From NCBI GenBank assembly GCA_016930515.1, contig JAFGGO010000008.1:1-20541 (forward strand): DNA of 20,541 bases, written 5' to 3'. The notes under the pieces are model-generated. The model saw nothing but the letters and a program-made list of their open reading frames with translations. It ran no database searches and was not told where the DNA came from. The position numbers and the translations under genes are program-made. Below are positions 1-19,700 of this stretch, in pieces; the first letter of the stretch is position 1, and each line of letters starts with the position of its first letter. The DNA is from Promethearchaeota archaeon. Lineage in GTDB: Archaea > Asgardarchaeota > Lokiarchaeia > Sigyniarchaeales > SOKP01.

Positions 1-837
1 GCCACTTAAAGCGCTCAGGCCGTACGATATGTAACCCCAAAAAAAAGGATATGTCCTGTAATTGTTCATGTCTTCGAACGGAGAAAGTTCGGCTCTTCCA
101 ATGAACAAGCCAGGGTAAATAGATGGCCATGAATCGTTTAGCAATAGATATCTCAACAATACTTGAATCCCGACTAATAAAAAAAGAAAACCCAGTAAAA
201 AAATTATAATTTGAACATTGGTTCTTTCAATATGTATCTCTTTTTTCCTTTTTTTAAGAAAATATGAAACATTATGATTTTTAACAAGATCTATTAAAAA
301 AAGAATGAAAATGCTTAAAATCAAGCCAGTAGAAATTGCGTTGATGGTTAAATTTGCTTGATCTAATATCAAGACGCATGTGCCCATAAAAGAAAAAGAA
401 ATCAAGGGATATAAAGTAAATTTGTATAAACCAAATTTCTGAGAGATTTTTTCGTGAGTTTTATTGTTTGAAAAAAAGATGTCGTATATACAAGCACCGG
501 GTAAATAACCCAAGCTGATAATACAAATGATTGCTCTTGCATACGACAAAAATCCGACCTGTGCCCACGAAATTATTGTAATGGGATTATAAAGCGGTAA
601 AATTAATTGTGATATACATATGAGTAATAAAATTAATGCTTTAATAGCTTGCTTAGACGGGATTTTAAAATAAAAATTTCTTTCTTTAATGCTAATAATA
701 TTTGGATTAAACATGACAATTGCAATGACAATCATTGCAATACCAACGATAACTAAAAGAAAATCAATCCAAATCCCAATCAAGAATATGAAAATTAATA
801 TAGATGTAAAAATTATATGTTTCCTATTCTCTATCAT
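1..837 (-). CDS. Partial multi-pass membrane protein (279 codons in window, runs off the left edge); possible GT-C-type glycosyltransferase-like or glycan-assembly protein
   Basis: Not in the ORF track. Translated by hand: ATG at 837-835 with an in-frame stop just upstream, and no stop down to base 1. MIENRKHIIFTSILIFIFLIGIWIDFLLVIVGIAMIVIAIVM... has several hydrophobic segments, a GYLPGACIYDIFF segment, then a loop LLNDSWPSIYPGLFIG...YPFFWGYISYGLSALSG. The function is inferred only. Confidence 0.8.
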   Translation of the reverse strand, partial: MIENRKHIIFTSILIFIFLIGIWIDFLLVIVGIAMIVIAIVMFNPNIISIKERNFYFKIPSKQAIKALILLLICISQLILPLYNPITIISWAQVGFLSYARAIICIISLGYLPGACIYDIFFSNNKTHEKISQKFGLYKFTLYPLISFSFMGTCVLILDQANLTINAISTGLILSIFILFLIDLVKNHNVSYFLKKRKKEIHIERTNVQIIIFLLGFLFLLVGIQVLLRYLLLNDSWPSIYPGLFIGRAELSPFEDMNNYRTYPFFWGYISYGLSALSG

Positions 838-1009
838 TTATAAAAAATAGAAATTATCAGAGATAAAAAACTTTCCTTCATTTATATGAAATCAAATAAT
901 AAATTGTTTTTTATATATTCAATAAGCTTTATTCAATGGTATCAATCCCATCCTTTAATTTTAATATAACATTTAAAAGTATAATTGGATCATTAAAAGA
1001 ATATGTAAA

Positions 1010-2143
1010 ATGAGTAAAAATATTTTAGTTACGGGTGGGGCTGGATTCATTGGCTCTCATTTAGTAGATACTTTAATCGAAAAAGGACATGAAGTTACTG
1101 TATTGGATTCTCTTGATAAACAAGTTCACGGGAATAAACAAGAACCCCCTCTCTATTTAAATAAGGACATTACATTTATTCACGAATCAGTGGAAAATTA
1201 CGATATAGCTAAGAAATTAATTCAAGATCACGATGTCATATATCATCTTGCTTCGATCGTGGGTGTTGGACAATCAATGTACGAGATTGAAAGATATGTA
1301 AAAAAAAACATGCATGGAACATCCGTTTTGCTTGATATTCTTGCTAATTGCGAACATTCGACGCAGAAAGTGATAATCGCCTCTTCTAATACGATATATG
1401 GAGAAGGGAGTGCTAAATGCAATAATTGCGGTATAGTAAAGCCCGATTTAAGGAGCGAATCACAATTAAGCTTAAAAGATTGGAATATATATTGTCCAAA
1501 ATGTAAAGCCCCACTAAAACCAATACTGACCCCTGAATCTCGCTCATTTAATTCTAGCTCCATTTACGCCTTGTCTAAACAAGTACAAGAACAGATGGGA
1601 TTGCTTATTGGAAAGACTTATGGTATCAACACTACTGCATTGAGATTTTTTTTAGTCTACGGTCCAAGACAAGCATTATCTAATCCTTACACTGGCGTTT
1701 GTTCTATCTTTACTAACAGGGCGTTAAAAGGAGAAACGCCCTTAATTTTTGAAGATGGATTACAAACTCGCGATTTTGTAAATGTAAAAGATGTCTGTCA
1801 AGCCCTCGTTCTCGCAATGGAAAAAAAGAATGCTGAAGGGGAAGTTTTTAATGTAGGGACTGGATGCCCAACAACCATAAAACAAGTAGCAGAAATCATA
1901 TTAGAAAAGACTAATCCAAATTTAAAACCAATAATCACGCAAAAATATCGAACGGGCGATATTAGGCATTGTGTTGCTGATATCTCAAAAATTAAAAATA
2001 AGCTTGGGTACGAACCCTCTGTTGATTTTCGTGAAGGAATCGTTCAGCTTATAGAATGGATTAAAAAGGAATCAAGCCTCGAATATTGCAATAATATAAA
2101 TTTGGCAAACGAAGAATTAGAAAAAAAAGGCTTGATAAAATAA
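1010..2143 (+). CDS. NAD-dependent nucleotide-sugar epimerase/dehydratase (extended SDR) with CxxC...CxxC insertion; resembles the dTDP-L-rhamnose 4-epimerase (WbiB-like) group
   Basis: TGGAGFIG Rossmann motif, ASSNTIYG, catalytic YALSK, VYGPRQALSNPYTGV, EDGLQTRDFV, RTGDIRHC; CNNC/CPKC insertion between the catalytic Ser and YxxxK. Confidence 0.85.
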   Translation: MSKNILVTGGAGFIGSHLVDTLIEKGHEVTVLDSLDKQVHGNKQEPPLYLNKDITFIHESVENYDIAKKLIQDHDVIYHLASIVGVGQSMYEIERYVKKNMHGTSVLLDILANCEHSTQKVIIASSNTIYGEGSAKCNNCGIVKPDLRSESQLSLKDWNIYCPKCKAPLKPILTPESRSFNSSSIYALSKQVQEQMGLLIGKTYGINTTALRFFLVYGPRQALSNPYTGVCSIFTNRALKGETPLIFEDGLQTRDFVNVKDVCQALVLAMEKKNAEGEVFNVGTGCPTTIKQVAEIILEKTNPNLKPIITQKYRTGDIRHCVADISKIKNKLGYEPSVDFREGIVQLIEWIKKESSLEYCNNINLANEELEKKGLIK

Positions 2144-2148
2144 AGGAG
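2144..2148 (+). promoter_or_regulatory. Shine-Dalgarno-like AGGAG upstream of the 2156 start
   Basis: TAAAGGAGAATACTCATG, with AGGAG ending 7 nt before the ATG. Confidence 0.5.
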
Positions 2149-2155
2149 AATACTC

Positions 2156-3205
2156 ATGAAAAAAGTAATGATTACGGGTTCTAATGGATTTGTAGGTTCT
2201 CATTTAATTAAGAAATGTATTAGAGAAGAATGCGAAATACTTGCCTTAATTCGGCCTAAATCTTCTTTTAAGAATTTAATCTCTTTTACAGACGGAAAAG
2301 AATATTTTTCAGATTCAGAAAAGGAAAATTTTAAAGGAGAGCTCGTAAAAATTCAGAGTAATAATAGGGATATTACCTTTATCGAATGCGATATAAAAAA
2401 TGCGGTATTAATGGATAAAATTATACAAGAATTCGTTCCAGATATCGTCTTTCACTTGGCGGCTCAACCATATATCGTTCCCTCTTGGGAAGATCCGAGG
2501 GACACGATTGAAACGAACGTTATTGGAACGATAAATATATTCGAACCTCTAAAAATAAATAGAATAAACGCCAAGGTGATATTAGCTTGTACGGCAGCGG
2601 AATTTGGGGAAACTACCAAGCTCAACCGACCATTAAAGGAAGAGGATCCTTTAAAAGCAACTCACCCCTACGGAATCAGTAAAATCGCAGCTGAATTGCT
2701 TTCGAGACAATATTTCCTAAATTTTGGCATCGAAACCGTGAATTTGAGGTTCTTTAACCTGACGGGAGACAATCGAGAAAACGACGCTCCTTCCGACTTC
2801 GTTAGAAAAGTTGCAGAGATCGAACTGGGATTGAACAAACCCGAAATTGAAGTGGGAAACCTCAATCCATATAGAGACTTTACGGACATCAATGAGGCCG
2901 TGGAAATAATCTGGCAAGCGGCATTAAAAGGAGTTGCTGGAGAAACTTATCACCTTTGCTCTGGGAGGAAAACTCAAATAAGAGAATTACTCAATATTGC
3001 TTTAAGTTTTACAAAAAAAGAAATAAAAGTTGTTGAAAATGTCACCAATAAGCTTCGGAAAACAGATGAGGACGTTTTAGTTGGAGATAATTCTAAACTT
3101 CAAAAAGAGTTAGGTGTAAATGTTTTAAAACCAATAGAAATTACTCTAAGAGAAATGTACAATTATTGGATTGATTACTATACTGAAAATAACCTTCAAT
3201 GTTAA
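2156..3205 (+). CDS. GDP-mannose 4,6-dehydratase-family SDR, more likely an Rmd-like 4-keto-6-deoxysugar reductase
   Basis: TGSNGFVG, PDIVFHLAAQPYIVPSWEDP, NVIGTINI, HPYGISK, VGNLNPYRDFTD. The dehydratase T-S-E segment reads T-A-A (ACTAAEFG). Confidence 0.75.
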   Translation: MKKVMITGSNGFVGSHLIKKCIREECEILALIRPKSSFKNLISFTDGKEYFSDSEKENFKGELVKIQSNNRDITFIECDIKNAVLMDKIIQEFVPDIVFHLAAQPYIVPSWEDPRDTIETNVIGTINIFEPLKINRINAKVILACTAAEFGETTKLNRPLKEEDPLKATHPYGISKIAAELLSRQYFLNFGIETVNLRFFNLTGDNRENDAPSDFVRKVAEIELGLNKPEIEVGNLNPYRDFTDINEAVEIIWQAALKGVAGETYHLCSGRKTQIRELLNIALSFTKKEIKVVENVTNKLRKTDEDVLVGDNSKLQKELGVNVLKPIEITLREMYNYWIDYYTENNLQC

Positions 3206-3232
3206 ATCAGCAAGTATCAAAATGTTTTAAGT

Positions 3233-4267
3233 ATGAAATTTTTAATTACAGGTGGTTTGGGATTCTTAGGATCCAATCTTTCTCAAAAAGTTCTCCGTGA
3301 GAAAGAAGAAATTATCGTTTTAGATAATTTTTCAAAAATTAATTGTAAAAACAACTTGAAATGGTTGAAAAAAAATGGAAATTTTAAATTAATCAATCAG
3401 GATGTAAGAAACCAAAAAAAAATAGATAATATTATTAAAAATATTATCCCTGATGTAATCTTTCACACGGCTGGCCAAACTGCGGTTACAAAATCGATTG
3501 AAAATCCTCGAAAGGATTTTGAAATTAATGTTGGTGGAACAATTAATCTGCTTGAAGCCATTAGAAAATATTCTCCTCAAACAATCCTCGTATATTCTTC
3601 AACAAATAAAGTGTATGGTGATTTAAAATACCTGTCCCTCTCTGAGGGGGATATGCGATATCATTTAAATAATTCTCAAGATGGGTTGGATGAAACTTTA
3701 AAACTAGATCTTCAAACCCCTTACGGATGTTCAAAAGGAGCTGCTGATCAATATGTTTTGGATTATGCAAGCATTTACGGTTTAAGAACGACTGTTTTTC
3801 GACATTCTGCCATCTACGGTCCAAGACAGTATCCATCATTTGACCAGGGGTGGGTAAGTTGGTTCTGCTTAAAAGGTTTGGAAATAAAATATAAAATTGA
3901 AAAGGATAAAATTAAGGTATTAGGAAACGGGAAACAAGTAAGGGATGTCTTATATGTGGAAGATGCGGTAAATCTCTATTTTAATGCAATCAGTAAAATC
4001 GAAAACATAAAGGGAATACCCTTAAATATTGGTGGTGGTTTTGAAAATAGTTTATCCATTCTTGAATTAATTTCTTTCTTAGAAAAAGAGCTTAATATTG
4101 ACATAAATTACGAAATTGATCAAGAAAGAGAGGCCGATCAAAAATATTTCGTTTCAGAGAATAAAAAAGTAAAAGATATTTTGGATTGGAAGCCAAAAAT
4201 ATCATTTCATCACGGTTTAAAAAAATTAATAATATGGTTGGAATCAAACCTTAAATCGGATATTTAG
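3233..4267 (+). CDS. rfbE: CDP-paratose 2-epimerase (CDP-tyvelose epimerase)-like SDR
   Basis: TGGLGFLGSNL, AGQTAVTKSIENPRKDFEINVGGT, YSSTNKVYGDL, TPYGCSKGAADQYVLDYA, FRHSAIYG, DQGWVSWF, GNGKQVRDVL: motifs characteristic of RfbE/Tyv. Confidence 0.85.
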   Translation: MKFLITGGLGFLGSNLSQKVLREKEEIIVLDNFSKINCKNNLKWLKKNGNFKLINQDVRNQKKIDNIIKNIIPDVIFHTAGQTAVTKSIENPRKDFEINVGGTINLLEAIRKYSPQTILVYSSTNKVYGDLKYLSLSEGDMRYHLNNSQDGLDETLKLDLQTPYGCSKGAADQYVLDYASIYGLRTTVFRHSAIYGPRQYPSFDQGWVSWFCLKGLEIKYKIEKDKIKVLGNGKQVRDVLYVEDAVNLYFNAISKIENIKGIPLNIGGGFENSLSILELISFLEKELNIDINYEIDQEREADQKYFVSENKKVKDILDWKPKISFHHGLKKLIIWLESNLKSDI

Positions 4268-7200
4268 TATGTAGAATTTCTATTCTAATAATGATCTCCC
4301 TATTACGAATTTTAAACGAAAATTTCTTCCCTTTTTTTGCTTTTCCATACTTTTCAATTCCACATTCTTCCTTGATATAATTAATAAACTCTGGATTGAG
4401 TTCTTTTTCGATGTCGTAATTGTTTTGAATGTTTACAATAAGTCTTTCTTTTCCTCGTTCGAGACCTAGATCCTTGCGTGCGTTCTGAAGATAGCGCGTA
4501 ATCTCTCGAGCGTCGCCTTCTTTAAATAAATCATCGTCGAGCTCAGAATTGATGAGGATGATTCCCTTTGGTAAGATTTTTACGGCATAGGGTTCCTTGG
4601 CGTTTTGATCTATCTGAAGGTGCTCCTTGGTTATTTCATATTCATTTCCGTCGAGCTCGAGCGTGAATTTGCCTTTTGCCATGCTTTTCTTTATCTCGTC
4701 GATACCCATTGATTCCAAGTGTTTTTGGACCTTAAGACGATTCTTTTTGAAGTCCTTTCCGAGATTTCCAGTGTTTAGCACGAGAGATTCTTCATAGAAG
4801 GATTTGGCTTTTTTTTCCGGAACGAAAGTGAGCCCCTTCACGTTTAATTCTTCCTTTATCAAGGATTCGAACTTTTTTACGATGTTTTTTTCTTCAGTTT
4901 TGAAATACAACAAGTACTCTTTTATTGGCTGTCGCGTGTTTATCCTCACTTTATCCCGAAGCCCTCGCAGTTCCTGAACCAAGCTCATGACGAATTCCAT
5001 TTCTTCAATTAACGACTCGTTAATTAAATTTTCTACTGGTTCTGGAAACTCTACTAAATGCACGGATTTTGTTTTTTTATTGTAATTAAAGGACTCTTGG
5101 AGCTGTAGGAAAATTCTTTCCGTTAAAAACGGAAGAAACGGAGCCATTAAGCGATTTAAAATGTCGATTGTATAATAGGTAACATTATATGCGTCTTGAT
5201 CCTTGTTTAGAAACCGCTTTCTCGACAAGCGAAGGTACCAATTGCTCAAGTCGTTGATAACAAATGTTTGAATAGCATCAGCAGAATTGAATATCAAATA
5301 ATCGTCGAGGTATAGTTTGACCTGCTTGACAAGCTGATTTATTTTTGCAATCAACCATAAATCTAAGGAGTTATTTAGCTTATCGGGATCGAAGTTTAAA
5401 TCTGGAACAATTTCGTTATTTATAGTGTTGTTAAAAAACAAGATAAAGGAATTATAATATTTCGTAATGAATTGCGAGATGACATACTTGATTGCGTCAA
5501 CACTCAGCCGCTTTTCCTTGTGGGGGGGTCCTGAAACGTAATACAACCATCGCAAGGCGTCCGATCCCTGCTCGTTGAAAATGAACCATGGATCGATGGT
5601 ATTTCCTAAGCTCTTGCTCATCTTCCTGCCTTCGCCGTCCAAAACGATACCGTTTACGACAACGTTCTTGTACGCATTTTTGTTGAACACGGCGGTTCCG
5701 ATGGCGTGCATCGTGTAAAACCACCCGCGAGTCTGGTCCATTCCTTCGGCTATAAAGTCTACTGGATAGGCAATTTCTTTATCGATAAGGTCCTTGTTTT
5801 CGAATGGATAGTGATATTGGGCAAAAGGAGCTGCTCCCGAATCGTACCAGCAATCTATGACCTCAGGGGTTCGTCTCATCTCTTTTTTGCATTTTGGACA
5901 CGATATCAGCACATCGTCGATCATTGGTTTGTGGTAATCTTCGAGCTCTACATTACCAATTGAGAGTTGTTTTAATTCTTCAAACGATTCCACGCAGAGC
6001 TCGTGTCCGCAAGAATGGTTCGAGCAAGACCAGATGGGTAATGGCGTTCCCCAGAATCGCTCCCTCGAGATGGCCCAATCGCGAGCGTTGTCTAAAAAGT
6101 TTCCAAAACGACCCGTCCCGATTAATTTTGGAACCCAATTTATTTTCTCGTTGTTGTCCAATAAATCTTCCCTGAAGCGCGACATCTCGATGAACCACGA
6201 TTCCCTTGCGTAATACAACAAAGCCCGATTACATCGCCAACAGAACGGGTAATCGTGAGAGTACTTGCGAGTGTCGAGTAGCTTTCCCATTTTTTTCAAT
6301 TCGCCTACCACCCACTTGTCCGTGTCCCAAACGCCTTTCTTGCCCATATCCTCTCGATGGATCTTGAAATATTTGCCAGAAAGCTCCGGAATCGAGTCGT
6401 CAAAAAAGCCTTTTTCGTTTATAGGTTGCACGAATGGAAGATCGTATTCCAACATCACGTTGTAGTCGTCCTCTCCGAACGCTGGCGCAATATGAACGAA
6501 TCCCGTGGAAATGTTATCTGTCGTGGGTTCTGTCGAGACGTAGTCCGCGTTTACCACTATGAAACCGTTCTCATCTGCCACTTCGTTAAAATACGGAAAT
6601 AACGGCTCGTATTTCTTATACAATAAGTCAGAACCGTAAAATTCCTTTTCTTTTTCGTAATTTCCCTCTCCGAGCACCGTGTTTAGCAAATTGGTCGCGA
6701 TTATATATTTTTCGTTTTTGTATTTCACGAGCGAATAGCGACTGTCGGCGTTAGCCGCTAATGCTACATTGCTCAATAAGGTCCAAGGCGTCGTGGTCCA
6801 CGCAACGATTTTTACGTCTTTAAAATTGGGATCAAGAAGCCTGAACGTGATGTAGACTGTCTCTTCTTCCACTTCCTCGTACCCTTGGGAAACCTCGTGG
6901 GAAGACAGGGGCGTCTCGCAGCGAGGGCAATACGGCACGACCTTCTTGCCCTTGTAAATCCTCTTTTTATCATAGATTTGCTTTAACGACCACCACACGG
7001 ATTCGATAAAGTAATTCTCGCAAGTGATATACGGATGGTCCATGTCTAACCAGAAAGCCATTCGCTTGGTAAGCTTTTCCCATTCCGATACGTATTTGAA
7101 CACGCTCTCGCGGCACTTTTTGTTAAAATTATCGATACCGTAATCTAAAATGTCCTTTTTCGTGCTTAAATTTAACGCTTTTTCTACTTCTAACTCGACA

Positions 7201-7448
7201 GGAAGACCGTGGGTGTCCCACCCTGCCTTGCGCGGGACCCAATACCCATCCATGAATTTATACCTTAAGATGATGTCTTTTATGCTCCGTGCGTACACGT
7301 GGTGGATCCCCGGCATGCCGTTCGCCGTTGGAGGCCCTTCCGTGAATTGAAACCTTCCTTTAGGCTTTTTAGCGTCGAGAATTAATTTAATGATCGAAAT
7401 TGAATCCCAATAATCCAATATTTTTACTTCCTCTTCTGGTAAAGGCAT
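4251..7448 (-). CDS. ileS: Isoleucine--tRNA ligase (type 2 / archaeal-eukaryote-like IleRS)
   Basis: EGPPTANGMPGIHH (HIGH-equivalent), GWDTHGLPVE, editing domain WTTTPWTL and GFVHIAPAFGEDD, DWAISRERFWGTPLPIW, EGMDQTRGWFY, KMSKSLGN, LSNWYLRLSRKRF; long C-terminal region with AREITRYLQNARKDLGL typical of type 2 IleRS. Confidence 0.97.
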   Translation of the reverse strand: MPLPEEEVKILDYWDSISIIKLILDAKKPKGRFQFTEGPPTANGMPGIHHVYARSIKDIILRYKFMDGYWVPRKAGWDTHGLPVELEVEKALNLSTKKDILDYGIDNFNKKCRESVFKYVSEWEKLTKRMAFWLDMDHPYITCENYFIESVWWSLKQIYDKKRIYKGKKVVPYCPRCETPLSSHEVSQGYEEVEEETVYITFRLLDPNFKDVKIVAWTTTPWTLLSNVALAANADSRYSLVKYKNEKYIIATNLLNTVLGEGNYEKEKEFYGSDLLYKKYEPLFPYFNEVADENGFIVVNADYVSTEPTTDNISTGFVHIAPAFGEDDYNVMLEYDLPFVQPINEKGFFDDSIPELSGKYFKIHREDMGKKGVWDTDKWVVGELKKMGKLLDTRKYSHDYPFCWRCNRALLYYARESWFIEMSRFREDLLDNNEKINWVPKLIGTGRFGNFLDNARDWAISRERFWGTPLPIWSCSNHSCGHELCVESFEELKQLSIGNVELEDYHKPMIDDVLISCPKCKKEMRRTPEVIDCWYDSGAAPFAQYHYPFENKDLIDKEIAYPVDFIAEGMDQTRGWFYTMHAIGTAVFNKNAYKNVVVNGIVLDGEGRKMSKSLGNTIDPWFIFNEQGSDALRWLYYVSGPPHKEKRLSVDAIKYVISQFITKYYNSFILFFNNTINNEIVPDLNFDPDKLNNSLDLWLIAKINQLVKQVKLYLDDYLIFNSADAIQTFVINDLSNWYLRLSRKRFLNKDQDAYNVTYYTIDILNRLMAPFLPFLTERIFLQLQESFNYNKKTKSVHLVEFPEPVENLINESLIEEMEFVMSLVQELRGLRDKVRINTRQPIKEYLLYFKTEEKNIVKKFESLIKEELNVKGLTFVPEKKAKSFYEESLVLNTGNLGKDFKKNRLKVQKHLESMGIDEIKKSMAKGKFTLELDGNEYEITKEHLQIDQNAKEPYAVKILPKGIILINSELDDDLFKEGDAREITRYLQNARKDLGLERGKERLIVNIQNNYDIEKELNPEFINYIKEECGIEKYGKAKKGKKFSFKIRNREIIIRIEILHTKYPI

Positions 7449-9530: not shown

Positions 9531-10886
9531 TCACGAGGCTCTATTCCCTTCACCTACTTTTCTATAATAAAAACCAAGTTTTTCCAATGAATTTCTATTA
9601 AAAATATTTCGTCCATCAATTAGAATTGGTGTTCGAACCTTGATTTTAATATGATTTAAATCAAGTTCATAATAATCTCTATGGTTCGTGGCAAAGATTA
9701 GAACATCTGCCCCTGTGAGGGCTTTGTCGATATTTTGGGTTAAATCCGTCTCATGATAATCTTTTTTCTTAACATAGGGATCGTGTGCGATATATTCAAT
9801 ATTATGAGAGTGATAGCGTTCTTTTAAAATCGAGACTATTTTTTCCGAGGGCGAGTTCCGAGTATCGTCTGTATTTGCCTTGTAAGATACTCCAAATAAT
9901 GCAATTTTCAGATTATCGTGTTTATCCGCCTCTTCTAGAGCAGACTCCATTAATTCGACGATATGTTCTGGCATATAGTCGTTTAGTCTCCTTGATTCAG
10001 GAAGAATTTTTGGGGTATAATAGTGTGGTGTATATGTTTCTAATCCATACATTAATAACCACGGATCTTTTGTAAGACAATGACCACCTACTCCCGAACC
10101 TGGCATGTGCATTAATCGATCGTGTCGATGATTAATGAGTTCTATGATTTCAAAAATATTTCTATTATAACTTTCCGCAACCAAAGCCATTTCGTTAGCA
10201 AAAGCAATATTTACATCTCTATAGGTGTTTTCAATGCATTTTGTCAATTCTGCTGTAAGAGTGTCGGTAATTTGGAGTTCTTTTTTAACAACTTTTCCAT
10301 ATAGGAATTTGGCCTTTTCATTAGCTTCCGAACATCCTCCCCCTATAACTCGTGGAAAGTCCGTAATGTATTCAATTAATTTTCCAGGCATTACCCTTTC
10401 GAACGAAAAAACCAAGAAAAAATCTTTTCCTCTTTTTAAGCCGCTTCCTTTTTCTAAGATTGGTGCAACAATATTGTTTGTTGTTCCCGGAGCTACTGTA
10501 GATTCTATAATAATAGTAACTTCTTTTTTTAAATATCTTGATATTTTATTTGAAACATCAATAAGAGATTCATATCTTGGAATTTTATGGTCATCTACGG
10601 GTGTTTGGACATCAATTAAAATATAATCTGCCTCTTTAATGATGTCGTATTTGTTTGTAACATTAAACTTTCCGTTTTTTACTACTCTTTCTATTAATTC
10701 ATCTAATCCAGGTTCTTCTCCTTCAAAAGGACTTTTACCTGAATTCAAGCAATCAATCTTCCATCCCGATCTTTTTGACATTCTCTGAATGCCAGTAACA
10801 TAAAAATCCGGAACATTTGCTAATAATGCGGCCATTGGAATTCCGACATAACCCATTCCAATAACTACTACTCTAGTTTTTGTCAT
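9531..10886 (-). CDS. UDP-N-acetylhexosamine (ManNAc/GlcNAc) 6-dehydrogenase, UDP-glucose/GDP-mannose dehydrogenase family
   Basis: GMGYVG, VQTP, ESTVAPGTT, ERVMPG, AELTKCIENTYRDVNIAFANE, catalytic GVGGHCLTKDP, GVSYKANTDDTRNSP, IDGRN; WecC/WbpA-like. Confidence 0.9.
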   Translation of the reverse strand: MTKTRVVVIGMGYVGIPMAALLANVPDFYVTGIQRMSKRSGWKIDCLNSGKSPFEGEEPGLDELIERVVKNGKFNVTNKYDIIKEADYILIDVQTPVDDHKIPRYESLIDVSNKISRYLKKEVTIIIESTVAPGTTNNIVAPILEKGSGLKRGKDFFLVFSFERVMPGKLIEYITDFPRVIGGGCSEANEKAKFLYGKVVKKELQITDTLTAELTKCIENTYRDVNIAFANEMALVAESYNRNIFEIIELINHRHDRLMHMPGSGVGGHCLTKDPWLLMYGLETYTPHYYTPKILPESRRLNDYMPEHIVELMESALEEADKHDNLKIALFGVSYKANTDDTRNSPSEKIVSILKERYHSHNIEYIAHDPYVKKKDYHETDLTQNIDKALTGADVLIFATNHRDYYELDLNHIKIKVRTPILIDGRNIFNRNSLEKLGFYYRKVGEGNRAS

Positions 10887-11047
10887 TTCATTTATTTAAA
10901 TATATAATTTTATTTCAAAGGGTACCTCTTTAATAGATTTAAAAGAAGTGAACAAATATCCAAATGAATACTCTAATAAAAACTATGATGAGACAAAATT
11001 TTTCTTAATAATAGAAAATTAAATGATCAATATTTAACAATATTTGC

Positions 11048-11731
11048 TTATTGTTTTTGGTTTTTTTTCATTAAAGATTTAGTGAATAATATATCTAATT
11101 CTTGGTCAATATCAACACTCCTTTCTTTTGGCATTATATAAGGAAGTGTTTTAGGACAATAAAAAGTATTATATTTTTTCAAAATATCTAATTTAGCAAT
11201 ATAAATCGCACCGTTAGGTATAAATGTCTTCTCATAATCTTGTCTTCGAGAAGTCTTCCTATCAAACAAGAATTTCAAATAATTTTGTTCTAATATCAAT
11301 GTCCAATAAGGAGGGTGTTCCGATTCTTTTACACTCACAATTGAATCACATTCGGAATTCAAAAATAGGTTTATGCTTTGCTCTATATCTAAAACAGTTC
11401 TAAGGGGGCTGGTTGGTTGTAAAAGCAATATTATTGTTGAATCTTCCTTTAGACCTTCTATTTGCCCAATAACATTAAAAATAGCATCAATAGTCGAACT
11501 TTCGTCACTTGATAATTCTGGGGGTCTATCAAAGACTTCTGCACCATATTTTTTTGAAATTGCGGCAATTTCTTTATCATCAGTTGAAACTATAATTCTA
11601 TTAATTTTCTTACATTTTAAAGCCTCAATAATAGTATAAGCAATTAAAGGAATTCCATTTATCATTCTGATATTCTTTTTTTTAATTCCTTTAGAACCAC
11701 CGCGAGCTGGAATGATACAAATTATTTTCAT
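11048..11731 (-). CDS. neuA: Acylneuraminate (CMP-nonulosonic acid) cytidylyltransferase
   Basis: IIPARGGSKGIKKKNI, IVSTDD, RPPELSSD, LLQPTSPLR, RRQD, NGAIY, SVDIDQELD. Confidence 0.92.
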   Translation of the reverse strand: MKIICIIPARGGSKGIKKKNIRMINGIPLIAYTIIEALKCKKINRIIVSTDDKEIAAISKKYGAEVFDRPPELSSDESSTIDAIFNVIGQIEGLKEDSTIILLLQPTSPLRTVLDIEQSINLFLNSECDSIVSVKESEHPPYWTLILEQNYLKFLFDRKTSRRQDYEKTFIPNGAIYIAKLDILKKYNTFYCPKTLPYIMPKERSVDIDQELDILFTKSLMKKNQKQ

Positions 11732-11745
11732 ATCTCTCGTTTTTT

Positions 11746-12885
11746 TTATTCTTTAAAAAATTCTAAGATCTTGTCTACAATAAATTTCTGTTCATTTTCT
11801 GTGAAATTAGGAGAAAAAGGGAGTGTTAACAACTTTTTGGAAATGCGTTCTGTTTTTGGAAGATCATTGTTTTTATAATTATATTTATTTCTGTAAAATT
11901 TTTTTAAATGAATTGGATGGAAGTAAACTTTTGTATATATATTATTTTCAATTAAAAATTGTTGTAATTCGTCCCGCCTTGTTGGTTCATTTAAAAAAAT
12001 GCTATATAATTGGTATACACAATACATATCCTGTAATTCCGGAATAATCATTACATTTTTCACATTTTTTAGAATATGGTCATAATATTTGCCTTTAGCC
12101 CTTCTTAATTCAATCAATTTATCAATCTTTTCCAATTGAGAAAGTCCTAATGCAGCACAAATTGTAGGCATTCTAAAATTATAGCCGATTTCAATATACT
12201 CCATTTCTTTTGTGGTTGTAAAATAATTCTCACCAGGTTGTTCTACTCTTCCATGGGATCTTATTAAAAGGAGTTTTTCGTTGATTCGCTTATCATTAGT
12301 GCAAACTGCACCACCTTCTCCTGTTGGTATAATCTTATTTTGGCAGAAACTTAAAATACTCGAATGTCCAAAAGTTCCTGCAAATTTATTTTTATATTTC
12401 GCTCCAAAACTCTCTGCGTTATCTTCAATGAGAATTAGATCATGATCATCAGCAATCTCCCTTAGCTCATTAATGTTTTTACATACTTTTCCTCCATAAT
12501 GCATTGGAATTATTGCTTTTGTTTTGTTTGTTATTTTTTCTTTTATGTCCTCAAGATCTAATCCCAAAGTATCTTCTTCGATTTCTGCAAAAACAGGTCT
12601 TGCTCCTGCCAAGATGGCGCAATTTGCTGTTGATATAAAAGACATTGAGGGAACTATTACTTCTCCATTAATAATGTCATGTGCTAATAAAGAAGCGTGC
12701 AATGCAGATGTACCTGAATTAAATGTAACAATATGCTCTATATCAAAATATTTTTCTAATCTTGTTTCAAATTCTCTTATTTCAGGGCCGACTGCCCAAT
12801 AAGATCCTCGTCGTATTACATCAGATACCTTCTGAACATCTTTTTCGTCCCAATATATATCAAATAATGGAAATGTTGTTCTCAT
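11746..12885 (-). CDS. DegT/DnrJ/EryC1/StrS-family PLP-dependent sugar aminotransferase
   Basis: NSGTSALH, EVIVPSMSFISTAN, IEDNAESFGA, SFCQNKIIPTGEGG (PLP lysine), GYNFRM. Confidence 0.93.
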   Translation of the reverse strand: MRTTFPLFDIYWDEKDVQKVSDVIRRGSYWAVGPEIREFETRLEKYFDIEHIVTFNSGTSALHASLLAHDIINGEVIVPSMSFISTANCAILAGARPVFAEIEEDTLGLDLEDIKEKITNKTKAIIPMHYGGKVCKNINELREIADDHDLILIEDNAESFGAKYKNKFAGTFGHSSILSFCQNKIIPTGEGGAVCTNDKRINEKLLLIRSHGRVEQPGENYFTTTKEMEYIEIGYNFRMPTICAALGLSQLEKIDKLIELRRAKGKYYDHILKNVKNVMIIPELQDMYCVYQLYSIFLNEPTRRDELQQFLIENNIYTKVYFHPIHLKKFYRNKYNYKNNDLPKTERISKKLLTLPFSPNFTENEQKFIVDKILEFFKE

Positions 12886-12892
12886 TATAGCA

Positions 12893-13948
12893 TCATATTA
12901 GATTGTTTTTATTTAATACATTCCTGATTTCTTCTTTTGAGATAGTAGGAAGGTGTTTAGTGTTATATAAGAATTCGTTTTTATCAACAATTTTGCTTCC
13001 GTTGATATCTATTTTGTTACGAGTAATATCATGGGTTAAAAATGTATGGGGATAAATAATATACATATCATCTGTTTCATAACAACTTGAAAATTCTATA
13101 GGAGAAATCAATTCCTCATCTAATTTTTCTTTTATACGTGGTCCAATAGTTATGATTGTTAAAGTTGAGGGATCTTTTCCTATTTTAGGACAATATTCTT
13201 CGATAATGACCTCGATTAAATCCTTAATTAATATTACTGGCATCTTTAGAACGAAAATCTCTCCACCTTTAGATAATGTTGCTGATTTTAATACTAACCC
13301 TATCGCATCCGAAATAGATAAGAAAAATCTTTTCATCTTTTCATCCGTGAGAGTTACATAATCTTCATTTTTAATTTGATCCTTGATTAAAGGAATAATT
13401 GATCCTCTAGATCCAAGTACATTACCAAACCGGACGCAGGATATAGTCGTATTATGTGTACCCTTGGTCATCTCACGTGATAAACATAACCTTTCCCCAA
13501 TCATTTTTGTGGCACCCATAACCGTTGTAGGGTTAATGGCTTTATCCGTGGAAATATGAACCATCTTTTTAACATTGTTGTAATAAGCTGCATCAATAAC
13601 ATTCGAGAGTCCAAAGATATTTACACTACTGGCCTCCATTGGATTATACTCACTAATAGGGACATGCTTAATGGCGGCGGCGTTAAAAATATAGTCAACA
13701 TTCTCGCTTGCGATCCTAATTCTTTCTAAGTTCCGGATATCTCCTAATAAAAACCTTAGTTGACTTAAATGATCTTTAAAGCGTAATCTTGTTTCCCATA
13801 GTTCGTTTTCGCTATTAGATAGTATTCTTATTGTTTTTGGTTCAAATTTTAGGAGTTGTTCTACTATTTCAGAACCAATTGTCCCTGTTCCACCTGTTAC
13901 TAATATGATTTTGTCTTTATAATGATCTTTTAAATTCAAAATTTCCAC
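12893..13948 (-). CDS. Soluble UDP-N-acetylglucosamine 4,6-dehydratase (polysaccharide biosynthesis CapD/PglF/PseB family), GTG start
   Basis: TGGTGTIG, AAAIKHVPISEYNPME, STDKAINPTTVMGATK, VRFGNVLGSRGSIIP, GGEIFVLKM, EKLDEEL. Confidence 0.9.
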   Translation of the reverse strand: MEILNLKDHYKDKIILVTGGTGTIGSEIVEQLLKFEPKTIRILSNSENELWETRLRFKDHLSQLRFLLGDIRNLERIRIASENVDYIFNAAAIKHVPISEYNPMEASSVNIFGLSNVIDAAYYNNVKKMVHISTDKAINPTTVMGATKMIGERLCLSREMTKGTHNTTISCVRFGNVLGSRGSIIPLIKDQIKNEDYVTLTDEKMKRFFLSISDAIGLVLKSATLSKGGEIFVLKMPVILIKDLIEVIIEEYCPKIGKDPSTLTIITIGPRIKEKLDEELISPIEFSSCYETDDMYIIYPHTFLTHDITRNKIDINGSKIVDKNEFLYNTKHLPTISKEEIRNVLNKNNLI

Positions 13949-14098
13949 TTTGTAAATATTGTATTAATTTAAAATTAATTTGTAGAAATACTATAATATA
14001 GAAAAAATTATTTGATTTGAAATCAAAAAGAATAAAAAAGAATTTGTAAAATGAAATATTGTTTTCATATTAAAATATTATAGGATGATAGGATTAAT

Positions 14099-14470
14099 AT
14101 GAGTGAAAGATTCAAAGATTGGAAACCCCCAAAATTTACAAAAAAAAATCATAATAGAAGTAAATCAGAATATGGATGGCATGTTTGGTATTTGGAAAAT
14201 TTAAAATTAGGAAAAAACACGGATATAGGATTTGGAACAAAAATATTTGCCCATTATGGTGTAACTATTGGTGATAATGTACAAATGGGTGCTGATTGTT
14301 TAATTTACAGCTACGATACTGAAAGAAATCTTAAAGGACCGATAATTATTGAGGAAAATGTTTTAATTGGTGCTAAATCAGTTGTACTACCACGAAAAGA
14401 TGGTAAACCTTTAATAATTCAAAAGAACAAAAAAATACCCATAGGAAGCGTTATTACAGATAATTTTTGA
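14099..14470 (+). CDS. Short left-handed beta-helix (hexapeptide repeat) acyltransferase
   Basis: Hexapeptide repeats LKLGKNTDIG, VTIGDNVQMG, IIIEENVLIGAKSVVLP, IPIGSVIT; divergent from the dehydratase/aminotransferase genes. Confidence 0.8.
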   Translation: MSERFKDWKPPKFTKKNHNRSKSEYGWHVWYLENLKLGKNTDIGFGTKIFAHYGVTIGDNVQMGADCLIYSYDTERNLKGPIIIEENVLIGAKSVVLPRKDGKPLIIQKNKKIPIGSVITDNF

Positions 14471-14508
14471 ATATTATCATATTAAAATTATAAATAATTG
14501 AATAGTGT

Positions 14509-14513
14509 AGGAG
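14509..14513 (+). promoter_or_regulatory. Shine-Dalgarno-like AGGAG upstream of the 14521 start
   Basis: GTAGGAGAATTTCAATG, with AGGAG ending 7 nt before the ATG; same AGGAGAAT context as at 2144. Confidence 0.5.
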
Positions 14514-14520
14514 AATTTCA

Positions 14521-15168
14521 ATGAAAGTTTTAGTGATTGCTGCACATCCCGATGACGAGGTTCTTGGTGTTGGAGGGACAATCTGTAAACATGTTGAAAA
14601 TATGGATGAGGTTTATATTTGTATAGTTACAAAAGCGTACGAACCCGAATGGTCAAATGAATACATTAAGCAAAAACTTACAGAACAGAAGCAAGTAGAT
14701 CAATTACTTCATGTTAAAAAAAGATATAATCTTGATTTTCCTACAATAAAACTTAACACAATTCCACATGGTATGCTCAATAATGCCTTAAAAAAAGTAA
14801 TTGAAGAAGTAGAGCCTGATATCATATATACACATTTTGAAGATGATTTGAATCAAGATCATAGAATAATATTTCATTCTACAATGGTAGTAGCAAGACC
14901 TCCAAGAAGAATCAAGGTTTTGAGTTATGAAATCCTTTCATCTACTGAACTTTCCAATAGTGGTTTTAATCCAAATTATTATATTGATATTAAAAAATAT
15001 CTTAGTTTAAAAATCGAAGCTTTCAGAATATATTCTTCAGAAGTAAAAAAATTGCCACATTCAAGAAGTTTAGAAGGTGTAGAATTACTTTCAAAATATA
15101 GAGGAATTCAAGTTTCTTTAGAGTGTGCTGAGGCCTTTATCATAAAGAAGGATTATTGGATATTATAA
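14521..15168 (+). CDS. PIG-L/LmbE-family zinc-dependent N-deacetylase
   Basis: AAHPDDEVLGVGGT, PDIIYTH, DLNQDH, YSSEV, AEAF. Confidence 0.9.
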   Translation: MKVLVIAAHPDDEVLGVGGTICKHVENMDEVYICIVTKAYEPEWSNEYIKQKLTEQKQVDQLLHVKKRYNLDFPTIKLNTIPHGMLNNALKKVIEEVEPDIIYTHFEDDLNQDHRIIFHSTMVVARPPRRIKVLSYEILSSTELSNSGFNPNYYIDIKKYLSLKIEAFRIYSSEVKKLPHSRSLEGVELLSKYRGIQVSLECAEAFIIKKDYWIL

Positions 15169-15253
15169 AAGTAATATTATTTGGATCATAATCAATTTAG
15201 AATTTTTAAAAAATACTTTTTTATTAATTAACAATAATCAATAAAATTCTTTT

Positions 15254-15287
15254 TATGAGTTAAATTATTAACTCATATTAAATGAGT
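15254..15287. repeat. Perfect 10-bp inverted repeat plus a third half-site upstream of the SDR-cupin gene; candidate operator
   Basis: TATGAGTTAA (15254-15263) - ATTA - TTAACTCATA (15268-15277), followed by another ATGAGT at 15282-15287. Confidence 0.6.
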
Positions 15288-15313
15288 AATTAAATTATAA
15301 AATTGAATTAAAT

Positions 15314-16708
15314 ATGAAAAAGAATGTTCTTATTGTTGGTGGTCTTGGTTATATTGGAAGTACACTGTATTCCTTGATAAAAGAAGAAGAAAATGAATGG
15401 AATGTAGAAATACTTGATAACCATTTATACAAAGATATTACTCCAGTTCATCCATTTATTGAAGTGGATGTAAGAGATAAGGACAAAATTAGTAAAAATA
15501 TAAAGAACTTCGATTATGTAGTTAATTTAGCTGCGATTGTTGGAGACCCTGCTTGTTTAGTTGATACAAATCTAGCTATTGAAATAAATTGTATTGGAAC
15601 AAGAAATCTTTCTGAGGTTTGCAAAGAATTAAATAAATTTATCATACATATAAGTACCTGTAGCATTTATGGTAGTGAACCTAACATAATCGTAAAAGAA
15701 GAAGACGAAGGATTTCCAATAGATTTTTATGGACAAACAAAGTATACTCAAGAGCGGCTAGTCAGAAATATATGTGAAAACAGTTTCTGCGTCCTTAGGT
15801 TAGGTACTGCTTATGGATTAAGCCCAAGGATGAGATACGATTTAGTTGTGAACACATTTGCGGGTAGAGCTATTAACGATAAAAAAATAACAGTTTTTGG
15901 TGGAGAACAAGAACGACCATTTGTACATATAAAAGATATATCCCGAGCAATAATTCATGTTATCAACAATGATATTAAGGGGATCTTTAACATTCAAGGT
16001 CAAAATCTTAGTCTAATTAAACTTAGTGAAATAGTAAGATCTATAACAAAATGTGATGTTGAAATTAAAACTGAGGTTATTGATAAGCGTAGCTATATGG
16101 TTGACAATTCTAAATTCGCTAAAACTGGATTTAAATATAAATATTCGATTGAATATGCCATTCAAGAAATAATGAATTCCCCGACTATTAATAACATGTA
16201 TGAAAGAATATATTCAAATTTAAAATTAGCTGAAAGGCTCAAAATTAAGAAATTAATCCAAGAAAGTAAAATTAAGATTATTGAAGGAGGTATTGCCGTA
16301 GATGATAGAGGAAGCTTAAGTTTTGTAAATGATTATAATTTCTTTGGTGTTAAACGCTTTTATCAAGTCTATAATTTTTCAACATCAACCATCCGAGCTT
16401 TTCATGGTCATTTAAAAGAAGCTAAATATGTGTATGTCGCTGAAGGTTCAGCTATAGTAGCGGCAGTAAAATTAGATAATATTGAATCCCCTTCAAAAAA
16501 TGAAAAAATAAATCGATATATATTATCAGAGAAAAAACCACAAATATTATTTATTCCTCCCGGTTATGCAAATGGATTTAAACCATTAGAGAAGAGAACT
16601 AGAATTCTTTTCTTTTCAACTAGTACTTTAGAGGAAAGTAAAGGAGATGATTATCGATATCCTGCGGATTATTGGGGAAACAACATATGGGAAGTTGAGA
16701 ATAGATAA
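15314..16708 (+). CDS. Fusion of NAD-dependent epimerase/reductase (SDR) and C-terminal cupin (RmlC/FdtA/WxcM-like sugar epimerase/isomerase)
   Basis: VGGLGYIG, LAAIVGDPAC, STCSIYG, YGQTK, GLSPRMRYDLVVN, RPFVHIKD; from about aa 319: DDRGSLSF, VKRFY, IRAFHGH, LFIPPGYANGF. Confidence 0.85.
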   Translation: MKKNVLIVGGLGYIGSTLYSLIKEEENEWNVEILDNHLYKDITPVHPFIEVDVRDKDKISKNIKNFDYVVNLAAIVGDPACLVDTNLAIEINCIGTRNLSEVCKELNKFIIHISTCSIYGSEPNIIVKEEDEGFPIDFYGQTKYTQERLVRNICENSFCVLRLGTAYGLSPRMRYDLVVNTFAGRAINDKKITVFGGEQERPFVHIKDISRAIIHVINNDIKGIFNIQGQNLSLIKLSEIVRSITKCDVEIKTEVIDKRSYMVDNSKFAKTGFKYKYSIEYAIQEIMNSPTINNMYERIYSNLKLAERLKIKKLIQESKIKIIEGGIAVDDRGSLSFVNDYNFFGVKRFYQVYNFSTSTIRAFHGHLKEAKYVYVAEGSAIVAAVKLDNIESPSKNEKINRYILSEKKPQILFIPPGYANGFKPLEKRTRILFFSTSTLEESKGDDYRYPADYWGNNIWEVENR

Positions 16709-16714
16709 AAAAAG

Positions 16715-17611
16715 ATGATAAAAATGACAAATATATTAGTAACTGGTATAAGTGGGATGTTAGGATCAATGGTTTTTAATTATCTTTCAAGAAATTCAGA
16801 ATTTAATGTTTTTGGAACCGTAAGAAATTCTAAATTTCTAAATAATAATATATACCTTTTTGATGCATACGACATTTCTCAATTAGAAAGGAAAGAAATT
16901 TTAGAACTTAATGTTGAATATATTATTAATTGTATTGGCATTACAAAACCATTTTCAAAAGATGATGACCCAGAAGGTGTAATGCGAGCAATCAAAATAA
17001 ACGCCGAATTTCCTTGGCAATTGGCGAAATACGCAAAAAAATATAATATAAAAGTTATTCAAATAGGAACGGATTGTGTCTATAGCGGTAAAGAAGGAAA
17101 CTATTCTGAAGACGCTAAGCACGATCCATTAGATGTATATGGGAAATCGAAAAGCTTAGGAGAAGTATTTGATGGAACAACTTTAATTATACGATCGTCA
17201 ATAATTGGTCCTGAGTTAAAGAAAGAAACAACATTTCTACTTGAATGGTTTTTAACTCAACCAGAAGGGGGAATTATAGGTGGTTTTGAACATCATATTT
17301 GGAATGGAATAACAACACTCCAATTTGCTGAAATATGTGAAAAAATAATCTATTTGAATAAATTTGATGATCTTTTAAAAATCTCGAATGTTCATCATTT
17401 TATACCAAACGCAACAGTAAATAAATACGAATTAATGAATATATTTAATGAAATATTTCAAAAAAGATTGATAATAAATAGAATCAATAAACCTGATGAA
17501 ACTGTGGATAGAACTCTTTCAACAAAATTCAATGAATTATCTTCAATATATCAAAATAAAGATATGATACAAGCATTAAGAGAATTAAAAGATTACTTTA
17601 AAAATTTATAG
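16715..17611 (+). CDS. RmlD-like 4-keto-6-deoxysugar reductase (start may be the second Met, at 16724)
   Basis: TGISGMLG, INCIGITK, INAEFP, GTDCVYSG, YGKSKSLGE, RSSIIGPEL, WNGITT, VDRTL. Confidence 0.85.
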   Translation: MIKMTNILVTGISGMLGSMVFNYLSRNSEFNVFGTVRNSKFLNNNIYLFDAYDISQLERKEILELNVEYIINCIGITKPFSKDDDPEGVMRAIKINAEFPWQLAKYAKKYNIKVIQIGTDCVYSGKEGNYSEDAKHDPLDVYGKSKSLGEVFDGTTLIIRSSIIGPELKKETTFLLEWFLTQPEGGIIGGFEHHIWNGITTLQFAEICEKIIYLNKFDDLLKISNVHHFIPNATVNKYELMNIFNEIFQKRLIINRINKPDETVDRTLSTKFNELSSIYQNKDMIQALRELKDYFKNL

Positions 17612-17617
17612 GAACTT

Positions 17618-18403
17618 TTATTTATTCTTTTCAGCCCAAAATAAAATCATCCAAGAAAAAATCTTAAATGGATATTTTTTAAGAATTTGAAATGTAAGTT
17701 TATTGATTATTTTCGCAAGAGGTTTAGAAAAAATAGCATGGCTAAAAGTTGCTCCAACTGTTTTTATGTTTATAAAACCTATTTTTTTTAATGAATTTAC
17801 TAAACGTTTTGGTCTAAAAGGATCTTCATCACTAACTTCTCCATAAGGGTTTTTAAATAATCTTTTAATTAATCTTGTAACTATATTTAAAGGATAATAT
17901 ACTGAAAAATCCAAAATAATAAGTCTTCCTCCAGGTTTTAAAATTCTGTTAAATTCTATTAAAAATTCATCAAATCCAATCTTTACTAAATGATGAAAAA
18001 AGAGCGGACTGGCGATCAAGTCAAAAAAATCATCATCATAACCTGAATGAAGAATGTCTCCTGTTTTTACTTCAATATTATATTTTTTAGAACACCTTTT
18101 TATGGCAATGGGAGATAAATCTATTCCATAAATATTTTCTGCGAATTTTTCTAAGTATTTGTAATCATCACCAGAACCACATGGAGCAATCAATAATTTA
18201 TTAACTTTCTTATTACCAATCTGATTTTGTATCAAGGATTTCATTTGATCTTTAGGAAAAATATAATTAAATCGAAATCTTTCACTTGAATTTATTGCTG
18301 GAGATTTTAATATTGAAATAAAGAACGATTCCTTTCTTTTTTTACTTGAATTGATATACCATTCAAGTTCGTTTTCTATCTTTTTTTTATATTTCTCTGT
18401 CAT
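17618..18403 (-). CDS. Class I SAM-dependent methyltransferase
   Basis: LLIAPCGSG (motif I variant), YGIDLS, GDI, FDLI, FFHH, RILKPGGRLIILD. Confidence 0.85.
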   Translation of the reverse strand: MTEKYKKKIENELEWYINSSKKRKESFFISILKSPAINSSERFRFNYIFPKDQMKSLIQNQIGNKKVNKLLIAPCGSGDDYKYLEKFAENIYGIDLSPIAIKRCSKKYNIEVKTGDILHSGYDDDFFDLIASPLFFHHLVKIGFDEFLIEFNRILKPGGRLIILDFSVYYPLNIVTRLIKRLFKNPYGEVSDEDPFRPKRLVNSLKKIGFINIKTVGATFSHAIFSKPLAKIINKLTFQILKKYPFKIFSWMILFWAEKNK

Positions 18404-18426
18404 TTTATTTTATGAATATTGAATTA

Positions 18427-19497: not shown

Positions 19498-19700
19498 ATT
19501 AAAACCATAATTAGAGGAATTTTAAAAATACTCTACATAAATTTAATAAATTAAAGTGTTCTATGGCTAATAATTATTTACACTATTTTTGATGAAATTA
19601 TTAGCTTGAGAAAATTAAGTTTTAATCAATAACTTATAATAACCTCGACATATTCTCAAAGTTATTAATATTTAACAATGAATTTGATTTTTTTTATAAT

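Follow-up and report, generated by a model that had tools for sequence, protein, structure and literature searches.

Class I synthetases show few natural rearrangements of their signature motif. One of them is exchange of the first histidine and the glycine of HIGH, by which enzymes are known to become hyper-resistant to an antibiotic. Brkic et al. (2023; PMC10485003) found G/AXHH in 86 of 163 type 2 isoleucyl-tRNA synthetases (IleRS2). The natural ALHH enzyme of D. radiodurans has a mupirocin inhibition constant (Ki) of 6.6 mM that becomes 823-fold lower on reversion to HVGH, and placing GVHH in the T. thermophilus and P. megaterium enzymes raises the Ki about 200-fold at a modest kinetic cost (PMC10485003). 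The swap is not accommodated by IleRS1, and the 41 archaeal IleRS in the supplement of that study all carry HXG(H/T) (PMC10485003). Modrusan et al. (2026; PMC13752280) subsequently defined the three types IleRS1, IleRS-A, and IleRS2, described GIHH as a feature of the HUP-2 domain only, and reported that an archaeal IleRS2 from Diapherotrites (DaIleRS2) tolerates an introduced GIHH motif, with the rate of Ile activation down just twofold. The text of that paper contains no mention of Asgard archaea or of natural archaeal GIHH enzymes. Here we analyze ileS in a 20,541-nt stretch of DNA (hereafter the window) that comprises positions 1 to 20,541, forward strand, of contig JAFGGO010000008.1 from the Promethearchaeota archaeon assembly GCA_016930515.1. 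The best overall explanation, which we consider very probable, is that this gene encodes a sole housekeeping IleRS2 with a naturally swapped GIHH motif, that the swap is an old trait of an archaeal clade, and that the enzyme works by the bacterial-type mechanism.

The open reading frame (ORF) encodes an isoleucyl-tRNA synthetase of type 2, with a HUP-2 catalytic domain and an ARD3/DUF5915 C-terminus. It scores 862 bits against the ileS equivalog model TIGR00392 in a protein scan (864 bits in the genome search), well above the cut-off of 621.4. Among solved structures, the top match in a phmmer search of the PDB is P. megaterium IleRS2 (763-771 bits), whose alignment with the window enzyme is full length and reaches residue 1005 of 1032. 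T. thermophilus IleRS2 scores 744 bits, eukaryotic cytosolic IleRS structures score 620-667 bits, and IleRS1 enzymes score only 246-359 bits. A Pfam domain scan of the protein found no zinc-binding C-terminus of the IleRS1 type and a type-2 C-terminus in its place. The scores and the type-2 domains therefore identify the enzyme as a type-2 IleRS.

The reverse complement of the motif codons reads GGG ATC CAC CAC and translates to G47-I48-H49-H50, in the context GPPTANGMP-GIHH-VYAR. When the first 150 residues were aligned by phmmer to the PDB, the alignment ran without gaps through the motif region and set GIHH over the HVGH of T. thermophilus IleRS2 (1ile) and wild-type P. megaterium IleRS2 (8c8u) and over the GVHH of the engineered mutant 8c8w. 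Glycine thus occupies position 1, and histidines occupy positions 3 and 4, of the aligned HXGH, which is the G/AXHH arrangement. The second class I signature (KMSKS) and the CP1 motif WTTTPWT are present as well. A preliminary description made from the DNA letters had read a GIHH motif beside an intact KMSKS and had assigned the enzyme to the type-2 IleRS whose G-x-H-H swap is tied to mupirocin hyper-resistance in bacteria (PMC10485003); the motif alignment, domains, and scores bear out both points.

G[IV]HH is retained in 33 of 33 close homologues, at 57-88% identity to the window enzyme, and at least four nucleotide changes separate the GIHH codons from any H-x-G-H. The motif is therefore a conserved feature, and sequencing error or chance was ruled out as its source. 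More distant Asgard relatives, which belong to other families within the window's order and class, carry GVHH or, in two cases, GAHH. A search of the host genome (a 4.0-Mb assembly, 94% complete) with the window protein and TIGR00392 detected no second ileS, the only other matches being ValRS and LeuRS, so the check for a second copy that had been proposed earlier leaves the window gene as the sole one. A single IleRS is likewise found in five further genomes of the swapped clade. The sole-copy status in the window genome and these five relatives, together with the conservation of the motif, argues at the level of sequence for the swapped IleRS being functional.

The host is a Loki-type Asgard archaeon of the Promethearchaeota, which NCBI assigns to the Asgard kingdom Promethearchaeati. 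The nearest proteins and loci (57-88% identity) belong to Promethearchaeota, Hodarchaeota, or similar Asgard metagenome-assembled genomes (MAGs), and part of the ileS genes of these relatives sit on Asgard contigs of 0.4-3.7 Mb (including G279:C1). The next gene upstream of ileS, also on the minus strand, encodes a 560-aa product that matches UQ_con (E2-like) and RWD, a eukaryote-like protein typical of Asgard archaea. The G+C content of ileS is 0.417 (0.51 at third codon positions, GC3), compared with 0.418 for ValRS and 0.43 for LeuRS of the same genome; because these values match, ileS carries no sign of recent transfer. The homologues, the E2/RWD neighbor, and the composition together rule out a mis-binned bacterial contig, which the preliminary description had named as a finding that would undo its reading, and support the archaeal host on which that reading depended.

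The closest described systems differ from the window enzyme in instructive ways. Bacterial G/AXHH IleRS2, such as those of D. radiodurans (ALHH) and Streptomyces griseus (PMC10485003), share with it the type-2 C-terminus, the position of the swap, the housekeeping role, and the intact KMSKS and editing site. The window enzyme, in contrast, belongs to an Asgard host, lies outside the bacterial crown at no more than about 45% identity, and is known from sequence alone. The best structural matches, the P. megaterium GVHH mutant (8c8w) and T. thermophilus IleRS2 (1ile/1jzq), align gaplessly through the motif region at about 42-45% identity, and the equivalent of PmIleRS2 W130 is retained (SEWEK); P. 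megaterium IleRS2 is naturally HVGH, however, and that of T. thermophilus is regarded as an HVGH revertant. DaIleRS2 (PMC13752280) is an archaeal IleRS2 like that of the window, but it is naturally canonical whereas the window enzyme is naturally swapped. The IleRS-A (HUP-1) enzymes of sister genera in the same family share the domain order, including the type-2 C-terminus, and the cellular role. They differ in identity (about 31%), motif (PPYTTGxI-HLGT), and clade, and according to the literature IleRS-A is intolerant of the swap and, as a rule, mupirocin sensitive. The plasmid-borne MupA and MupB of staphylococci are type-2 IleRS with about 40% identity to the window enzyme; MupA is a mobile second copy with canonical HAGH, whereas the window ileS is a swapped, chromosomal sole copy. 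This HAGH is that of mupA on S. aureus plasmid pPR9 (L163), the gene behind high-level mupirocin resistance in the clinic, and the swapped motif is accordingly not a defining feature of MupA.

A scan of 400 genomes of the phylum, with extraction of selected genes and assignment of IleRS type elsewhere from the class of E-value, reveals several IleRS forms among Asgard archaea. Most genera of the window's family (f1), order, and class have an IleRS-A-like form (PPYTTGxI-HLGT, about 31% identity to the window enzyme), as do several other families. At about 42% identity, IleRS2 with the canonical motif (H[PVMA]GH) is found in many other Asgard families. Swapped IleRS2 is present in 17 of the 400 genomes, distributed over f1 genera g1, g4, g6, g8, g9, and g10, one genus each of f3 and f4 in the same order, and, as GAHH, families f5 and f6 of the window's class. 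A 951-aa PPFATGLP-HYGH enzyme occurs as a second copy alongside IleRS-A in genera g11 and g12. Two deep forms complete the set: PPTTNGFM-HVGH in f31, and an additional gene with PITANNPM-G[MV]H[HT] in f13, f16, and f18. Two relatives of the window genome hold both IleRS-A and swapped IleRS2. In G127, of the same class, the two genes diverge across a gap of about 1.07 kb on a single contig of 4.4 kb (G127:C311, 1-4455; L251, L255), with IleRS-A (HLGT) on the minus strand starting at about 1995 and the GAHH IleRS2 on the plus strand starting at about 3070. In G151, of the genus nearest to that of the window, the two genes are on separate contigs. These pairs hint that an ancestor held two IleRS and that its descendants lost one or the other.

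Three of these forms have features of their own. The 951-aa HYGH enzyme (L118:1108-3963 on G204:C12; L147 on G271:C30; proteins P0122-P0241) is found in many g11 and g12 genomes, within the window's own family. Its top solved structure is the eukaryotic cytosolic IleRS 9w01_B (731 bits, versus 705 for PmIleRS2), and it clusters with Blattamonas, Actinobacteria, and candidate phyla radiation (CPR) sequences without being the direct sister of the eukaryote. One MAG of the window's genus (L146, G152:C163; 74% complete) has no swapped IleRS2 and encodes instead a 1031-aa PPFANGLP-HYGH enzyme that clusters with a Peregrinibacteria (CPR) sequence, either through bin contamination or through a separate transfer. 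The second IleRS-like genes of f13, f16, and f18 (L252 on G082:C7, L253 on G075:C14, and L254 on G011:C35) encode proteins of 995-1078 aa that score above the TIGR00392 cut-off. With their PITANNPM-G[MV]H[HT] motif, they branch deeply as a separate clade (support 100), placed between the main IleRS2 and the f31-type enzymes. This lineage with a swapped-looking motif is mentioned neither in PMC10485003 nor in the text of PMC13752280.

We placed the window enzyme in three trees: a FastTree phylogeny of 79 rows, a FastTree phylogeny of 230 rows that includes 149 representatives of 50%-identity clusters, and an IQ-TREE quick search under LG+C20+F+G4 with posterior mean site frequencies (PMSF; 64 rows and 945 columns). 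One clade unites the Asgard G[AVI]HH sequences in every tree (support 99-100), and it lies inside IleRS2, apart from IleRS1 and IleRS-A. In every tree it also falls outside the clade that takes in the bacterial IleRS2 sampled here along with the sequences of HYGH/eukaryote type, with a support of 100 in the 230-row FastTree and an SH-aLRT (approximate likelihood-ratio test) value of 98 in the C20 tree. Its neighbors are archaeal: GVHH sequences from Thermoplasmatales and a Halobacteriota MAG, GIHH from Poseidoniia, GIHS from Thermoplasmata, ALHH from Altiarchaeales, and GLHH from Pacearchaeota. The GIHS sequences, from MAGs labeled Thermoplasmata and Methanobacteriota (L012, L013), represent a swapped form in which Ser replaces the fourth-position His. 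On the evidence of these trees, the swap appears to be an old trait, fixed in an Asgard IleRS2 clade that spans several families of one class, rather than a recent acquisition.

Membership of the window enzyme in IleRS-A was ruled out by the identity of about 31% to Asgard IleRS-A and by the separation of the two clades at 99-100 support. Blattamonas, the sole verified eukaryote, groups with all PPFATGLP-HYGH sequences in a separate clade (99-100) inside the crown, and the window's PPTANGMP-GIHH lies outside it, ruling out the lineage of eukaryotic cytosolic IleRS. This placement rests on Blattamonas, which is among the cluster representatives, and on the HYGH representatives; a homologue search with a Loki HYGH-type IleRS as the query returned Asgard matches only and no eukaryote sequences. 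Because the HYGH and eukaryote sequences form a separate clade, the window enzyme has no special tie to eukaryotic cytosolic IleRS. The earlier suggestion that it bears on their origin is thus not upheld, and the picture of that origin is unchanged.

The swap is routine in IleRS2. G/A/SxHH is found in about 73 of the 149 cluster representatives (50% identity) nearest to the window enzyme. Parsimony requires at least 14 changes of motif state over the 208 rows scored in the 230-row tree, and swapped motifs also occur in Thermoplasmatota, DPANN, and a Halobacteriota MAG. Given this frequency, the preliminary description overrated the surprise of the motif. The state of the motif covaries with the residue three positions beyond it (+3): among PPTANG-type IleRS2, 46 of 56 canonical sequences have Thr there, and 84 of 99 swapped ones have Ala or Ser; phylogenetically independent pairs point in the same direction (median sign-test p 0.03). 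The window enzyme has Ala at this position. A term search of the main text of Brkic et al. (PMC10485003) found no mention of this covariation.

How the clade came by its swapped enzyme can be considered in light of these data. The preliminary description had offered two alternatives, acquisition from bacteria or extension of the GxHH clade into Asgard archaea, and the second is favored. One candidate history is the recent gain of a mupirocin-resistance IleRS2 from bacteria, either one resembling MupA or one of a GxHH lineage (Ignavibacteria or Bacteroidota, for example). In its favor, many GxHH enzymes of Ignavibacteriota/Chlorobiota (39-41% identity) are among the top matches of the pattern scan outside Asgard, and partial scores on the MupA and MupB models are high. 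We nevertheless regard it as very unlikely. The scores on those models (NF000257, 784.6 bits; NF000258, 756.6 bits) fall far below the cut-offs of 1900 and rule out membership in either family, MupA is itself HAGH, no bacterial sequence exceeds 45% identity to the window enzyme, the bacterial crown excludes the Asgard swapped clade, the composition of ileS matches that of the genome's other aminoacyl-tRNA synthetase genes, and the clade spans several Asgard families. Alternatively, an Asgard IleRS2 could have descended vertically, with the H1/G3 exchange occurring in place on the branch to the class and separately from the bacterial swaps. When all 17 Asgard IleRS2 rows (8 GxHH and 9 HxGH) are constrained to group together, the resulting tree has a log-likelihood 6.9 above that of the free quick search, and because the approximately unbiased (AU) test gives p-AU 0.58, this history is not rejected. 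Branching within the clade roughly tracks taxonomy at the level of class, order, and family, and the repeated changes of motif state make recurrent swaps plausible. The Asgard IleRS2 grouping is absent from the free trees, however, non-rejection is no demonstration, and most sampled members of the class carry IleRS-A, not IleRS2; we therefore hold vertical descent only tentatively. A third history, for which our support is likewise tentative, is an ancient transfer between archaea, in which a swapped IleRS2 from a DPANN- or Thermoplasmatota-like donor entered an early member of the class, coexisted with IleRS-A, and then displaced it in some genera. The FastTree phylogenies pair the Asgard clade with A/GLHH sequences of Altiarchaeales/Pacearchaeota (support 91 and 97), IleRS-A is more widespread within the class than IleRS2, and G127 (on one contig) and G151 hold both types. 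The DPANN pairing is nonetheless lost under LG+C20 PMSF and may be a long-branch or compositional artifact, the G127 contig is just 4.4 kb long, and the G151 bin has 7% contamination.

Whatever its origin, the swap could be selectively neutral, a drift state tolerated by the IleRS2 scaffold without any tie to inhibitors in the habitat, and we give this somewhat less than an even chance. Roughly every second IleRS2 cluster representative is swapped and the motif state has flipped repeatedly, the divergence of HUP-1 from HUP-2 has been argued to predate mupirocin (PMC13752280), and engineered swaps carry a small kinetic cost (PMC10485003). Set against this are the strict conservation of the motif down to 57% identity and its covariation with the +3 residue, which together indicate a settled, constrained motif state rather than free drift; neither proves antibiotic selection. 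Several points weigh against our preferred explanation, in which an old clade trait is coupled to bacterial-type hyper-resistance. The sister of the Asgard swapped clade differs between trees, being the DPANN A/GLHH sequences at 91-97 in FastTree and part of a polytomy, with DPANN shifted to the base, in the C20 tree. All three trees are FastTree or quick IQ-TREE searches, their sampling is biased to the nearest neighbors of the query, and they include one verified eukaryote. The MAG itself has an estimated contamination of 5.3%. Lastly, since one archaeal IleRS-A showed unexpected mupirocin behavior (PMC13752280), clade membership is an imperfect predictor of the response to the antibiotic.

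By analogy with bacterial IleRS2, His49 at motif position 3 would act in the transition state in place of the canonical first histidine, with the displaced motif helix of IleRS2 leaving space for it beside the adenine. Activation of Ile would then be nearly normal, and mupirocin-like inhibitors would be expected to bind hundreds of times more weakly; it is from this analogy that we infer both the catalytic mechanism and the mupirocin hyper-resistance of the window enzyme. In this lineage the IleRS2 occupies the place of the IleRS-A used by sister genera. Swapped IleRS2 enzymes have already been described and are common in bacteria, and the Asgard case is real and only modestly new. It widens the known range of the swap to the sole IleRS of a whole Loki-type Asgard clade, along with Thermoplasmatota, DPANN, and a Halobacteriota MAG, and it puts natural archaeal enzymes on offer for testing, outside bacteria, the proposal that HUP-2 tolerates the swap and becomes hyper-resistant.

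Most worth attention is that one Asgard class combines several IleRS types, and that IleRS-A and a swapped IleRS2 may have formed an ancestral pair. In the fullest form of this idea, which we think unlikely, the ancestor of the class would have held an IleRS-A of the mupirocin-sensitive type together with a swapped IleRS2 of the hyper-resistant type, lineages would later have kept one or the other, and the swap would either have originated within archaeal IleRS2, independently of the bacterial swaps, or be ancestral near the base of IleRS2. Such a pair would be the archaeal counterpart of the IleRS1 and IleRS2 pair of Bacillaceae and, if real, would mean that natural products targeting IleRS have shaped archaeal translation in sediments.

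The layout of ileS and its surroundings is collected in Table 1. Apart from the two class I signatures, the enzyme contains an intact, conserved Thr-rich motif in CP1, whose role in editing is established for IleRS.

Table 1. Features of ileS and flanking genes in the 20,541-nt window.
Feature	Position (nt)	Strand	Basis
ileS, type 2 (IleRS2), sole IleRS of the genome	4251..7448	-	ORF, 1065 aa + stop codon; TIGR00392, 862 bits
GIHH, swapped class I HIGH motif, aa 47-50	7299..7310	-	gapless alignment to HVGH/GVHH of IleRS2 structures
Ala at motif position +3, aa 53	7290..7292	-	
KMSKS, second class I signature, intact, aa 609-613	5610..5624	-	read from translation
Catalytic Rossmann (HUP) domain with inserted CP1/editing domain, aa 10-637	5538..7421	-	Pfam tRNA-synt_1 PF00133, E 1e-121
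WTTTPWT, Thr-rich CP1 editing-site motif, intact, aa 217-223	6780..6800	-	read from translation
Anticodon-binding helical domain (Anticodon_1), aa 696-845	4914..5363	-	Pfam PF08264, E 6e-30
Type-2 C-terminal domain (DUF5915/ARD3), aa 862-1057	4278..4865	-	Pfam PF19302, E 5e-20
E2-like/RWD protein, 560 aa	7623..9305	-	UQ_con and RWD matches
Nucleotide-sugar/glycan gene cluster, two parts	1..4267 and 9531..20426		

The linkage of an E2/RWD-RING gene to ileS is found in one sister genus only (L011/L100), and we dropped the idea that a conserved linkage might serve as a clue to the motif. The remainder of the window consists largely of a flanking nucleotide-sugar/glycan gene cluster, with several epimerase/dehydratases, a UDP-glucose dehydrogenase, a DegT aminotransferase, a cytidylyltransferase, PIG-L, a UDP-GlcNAc 2-epimerase, and methyltransferases. 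With a GC3 of 0.21-0.31, below the genome mean of 0.35, it is these sugar genes, and not ileS, that are the compositional outliers of the window.

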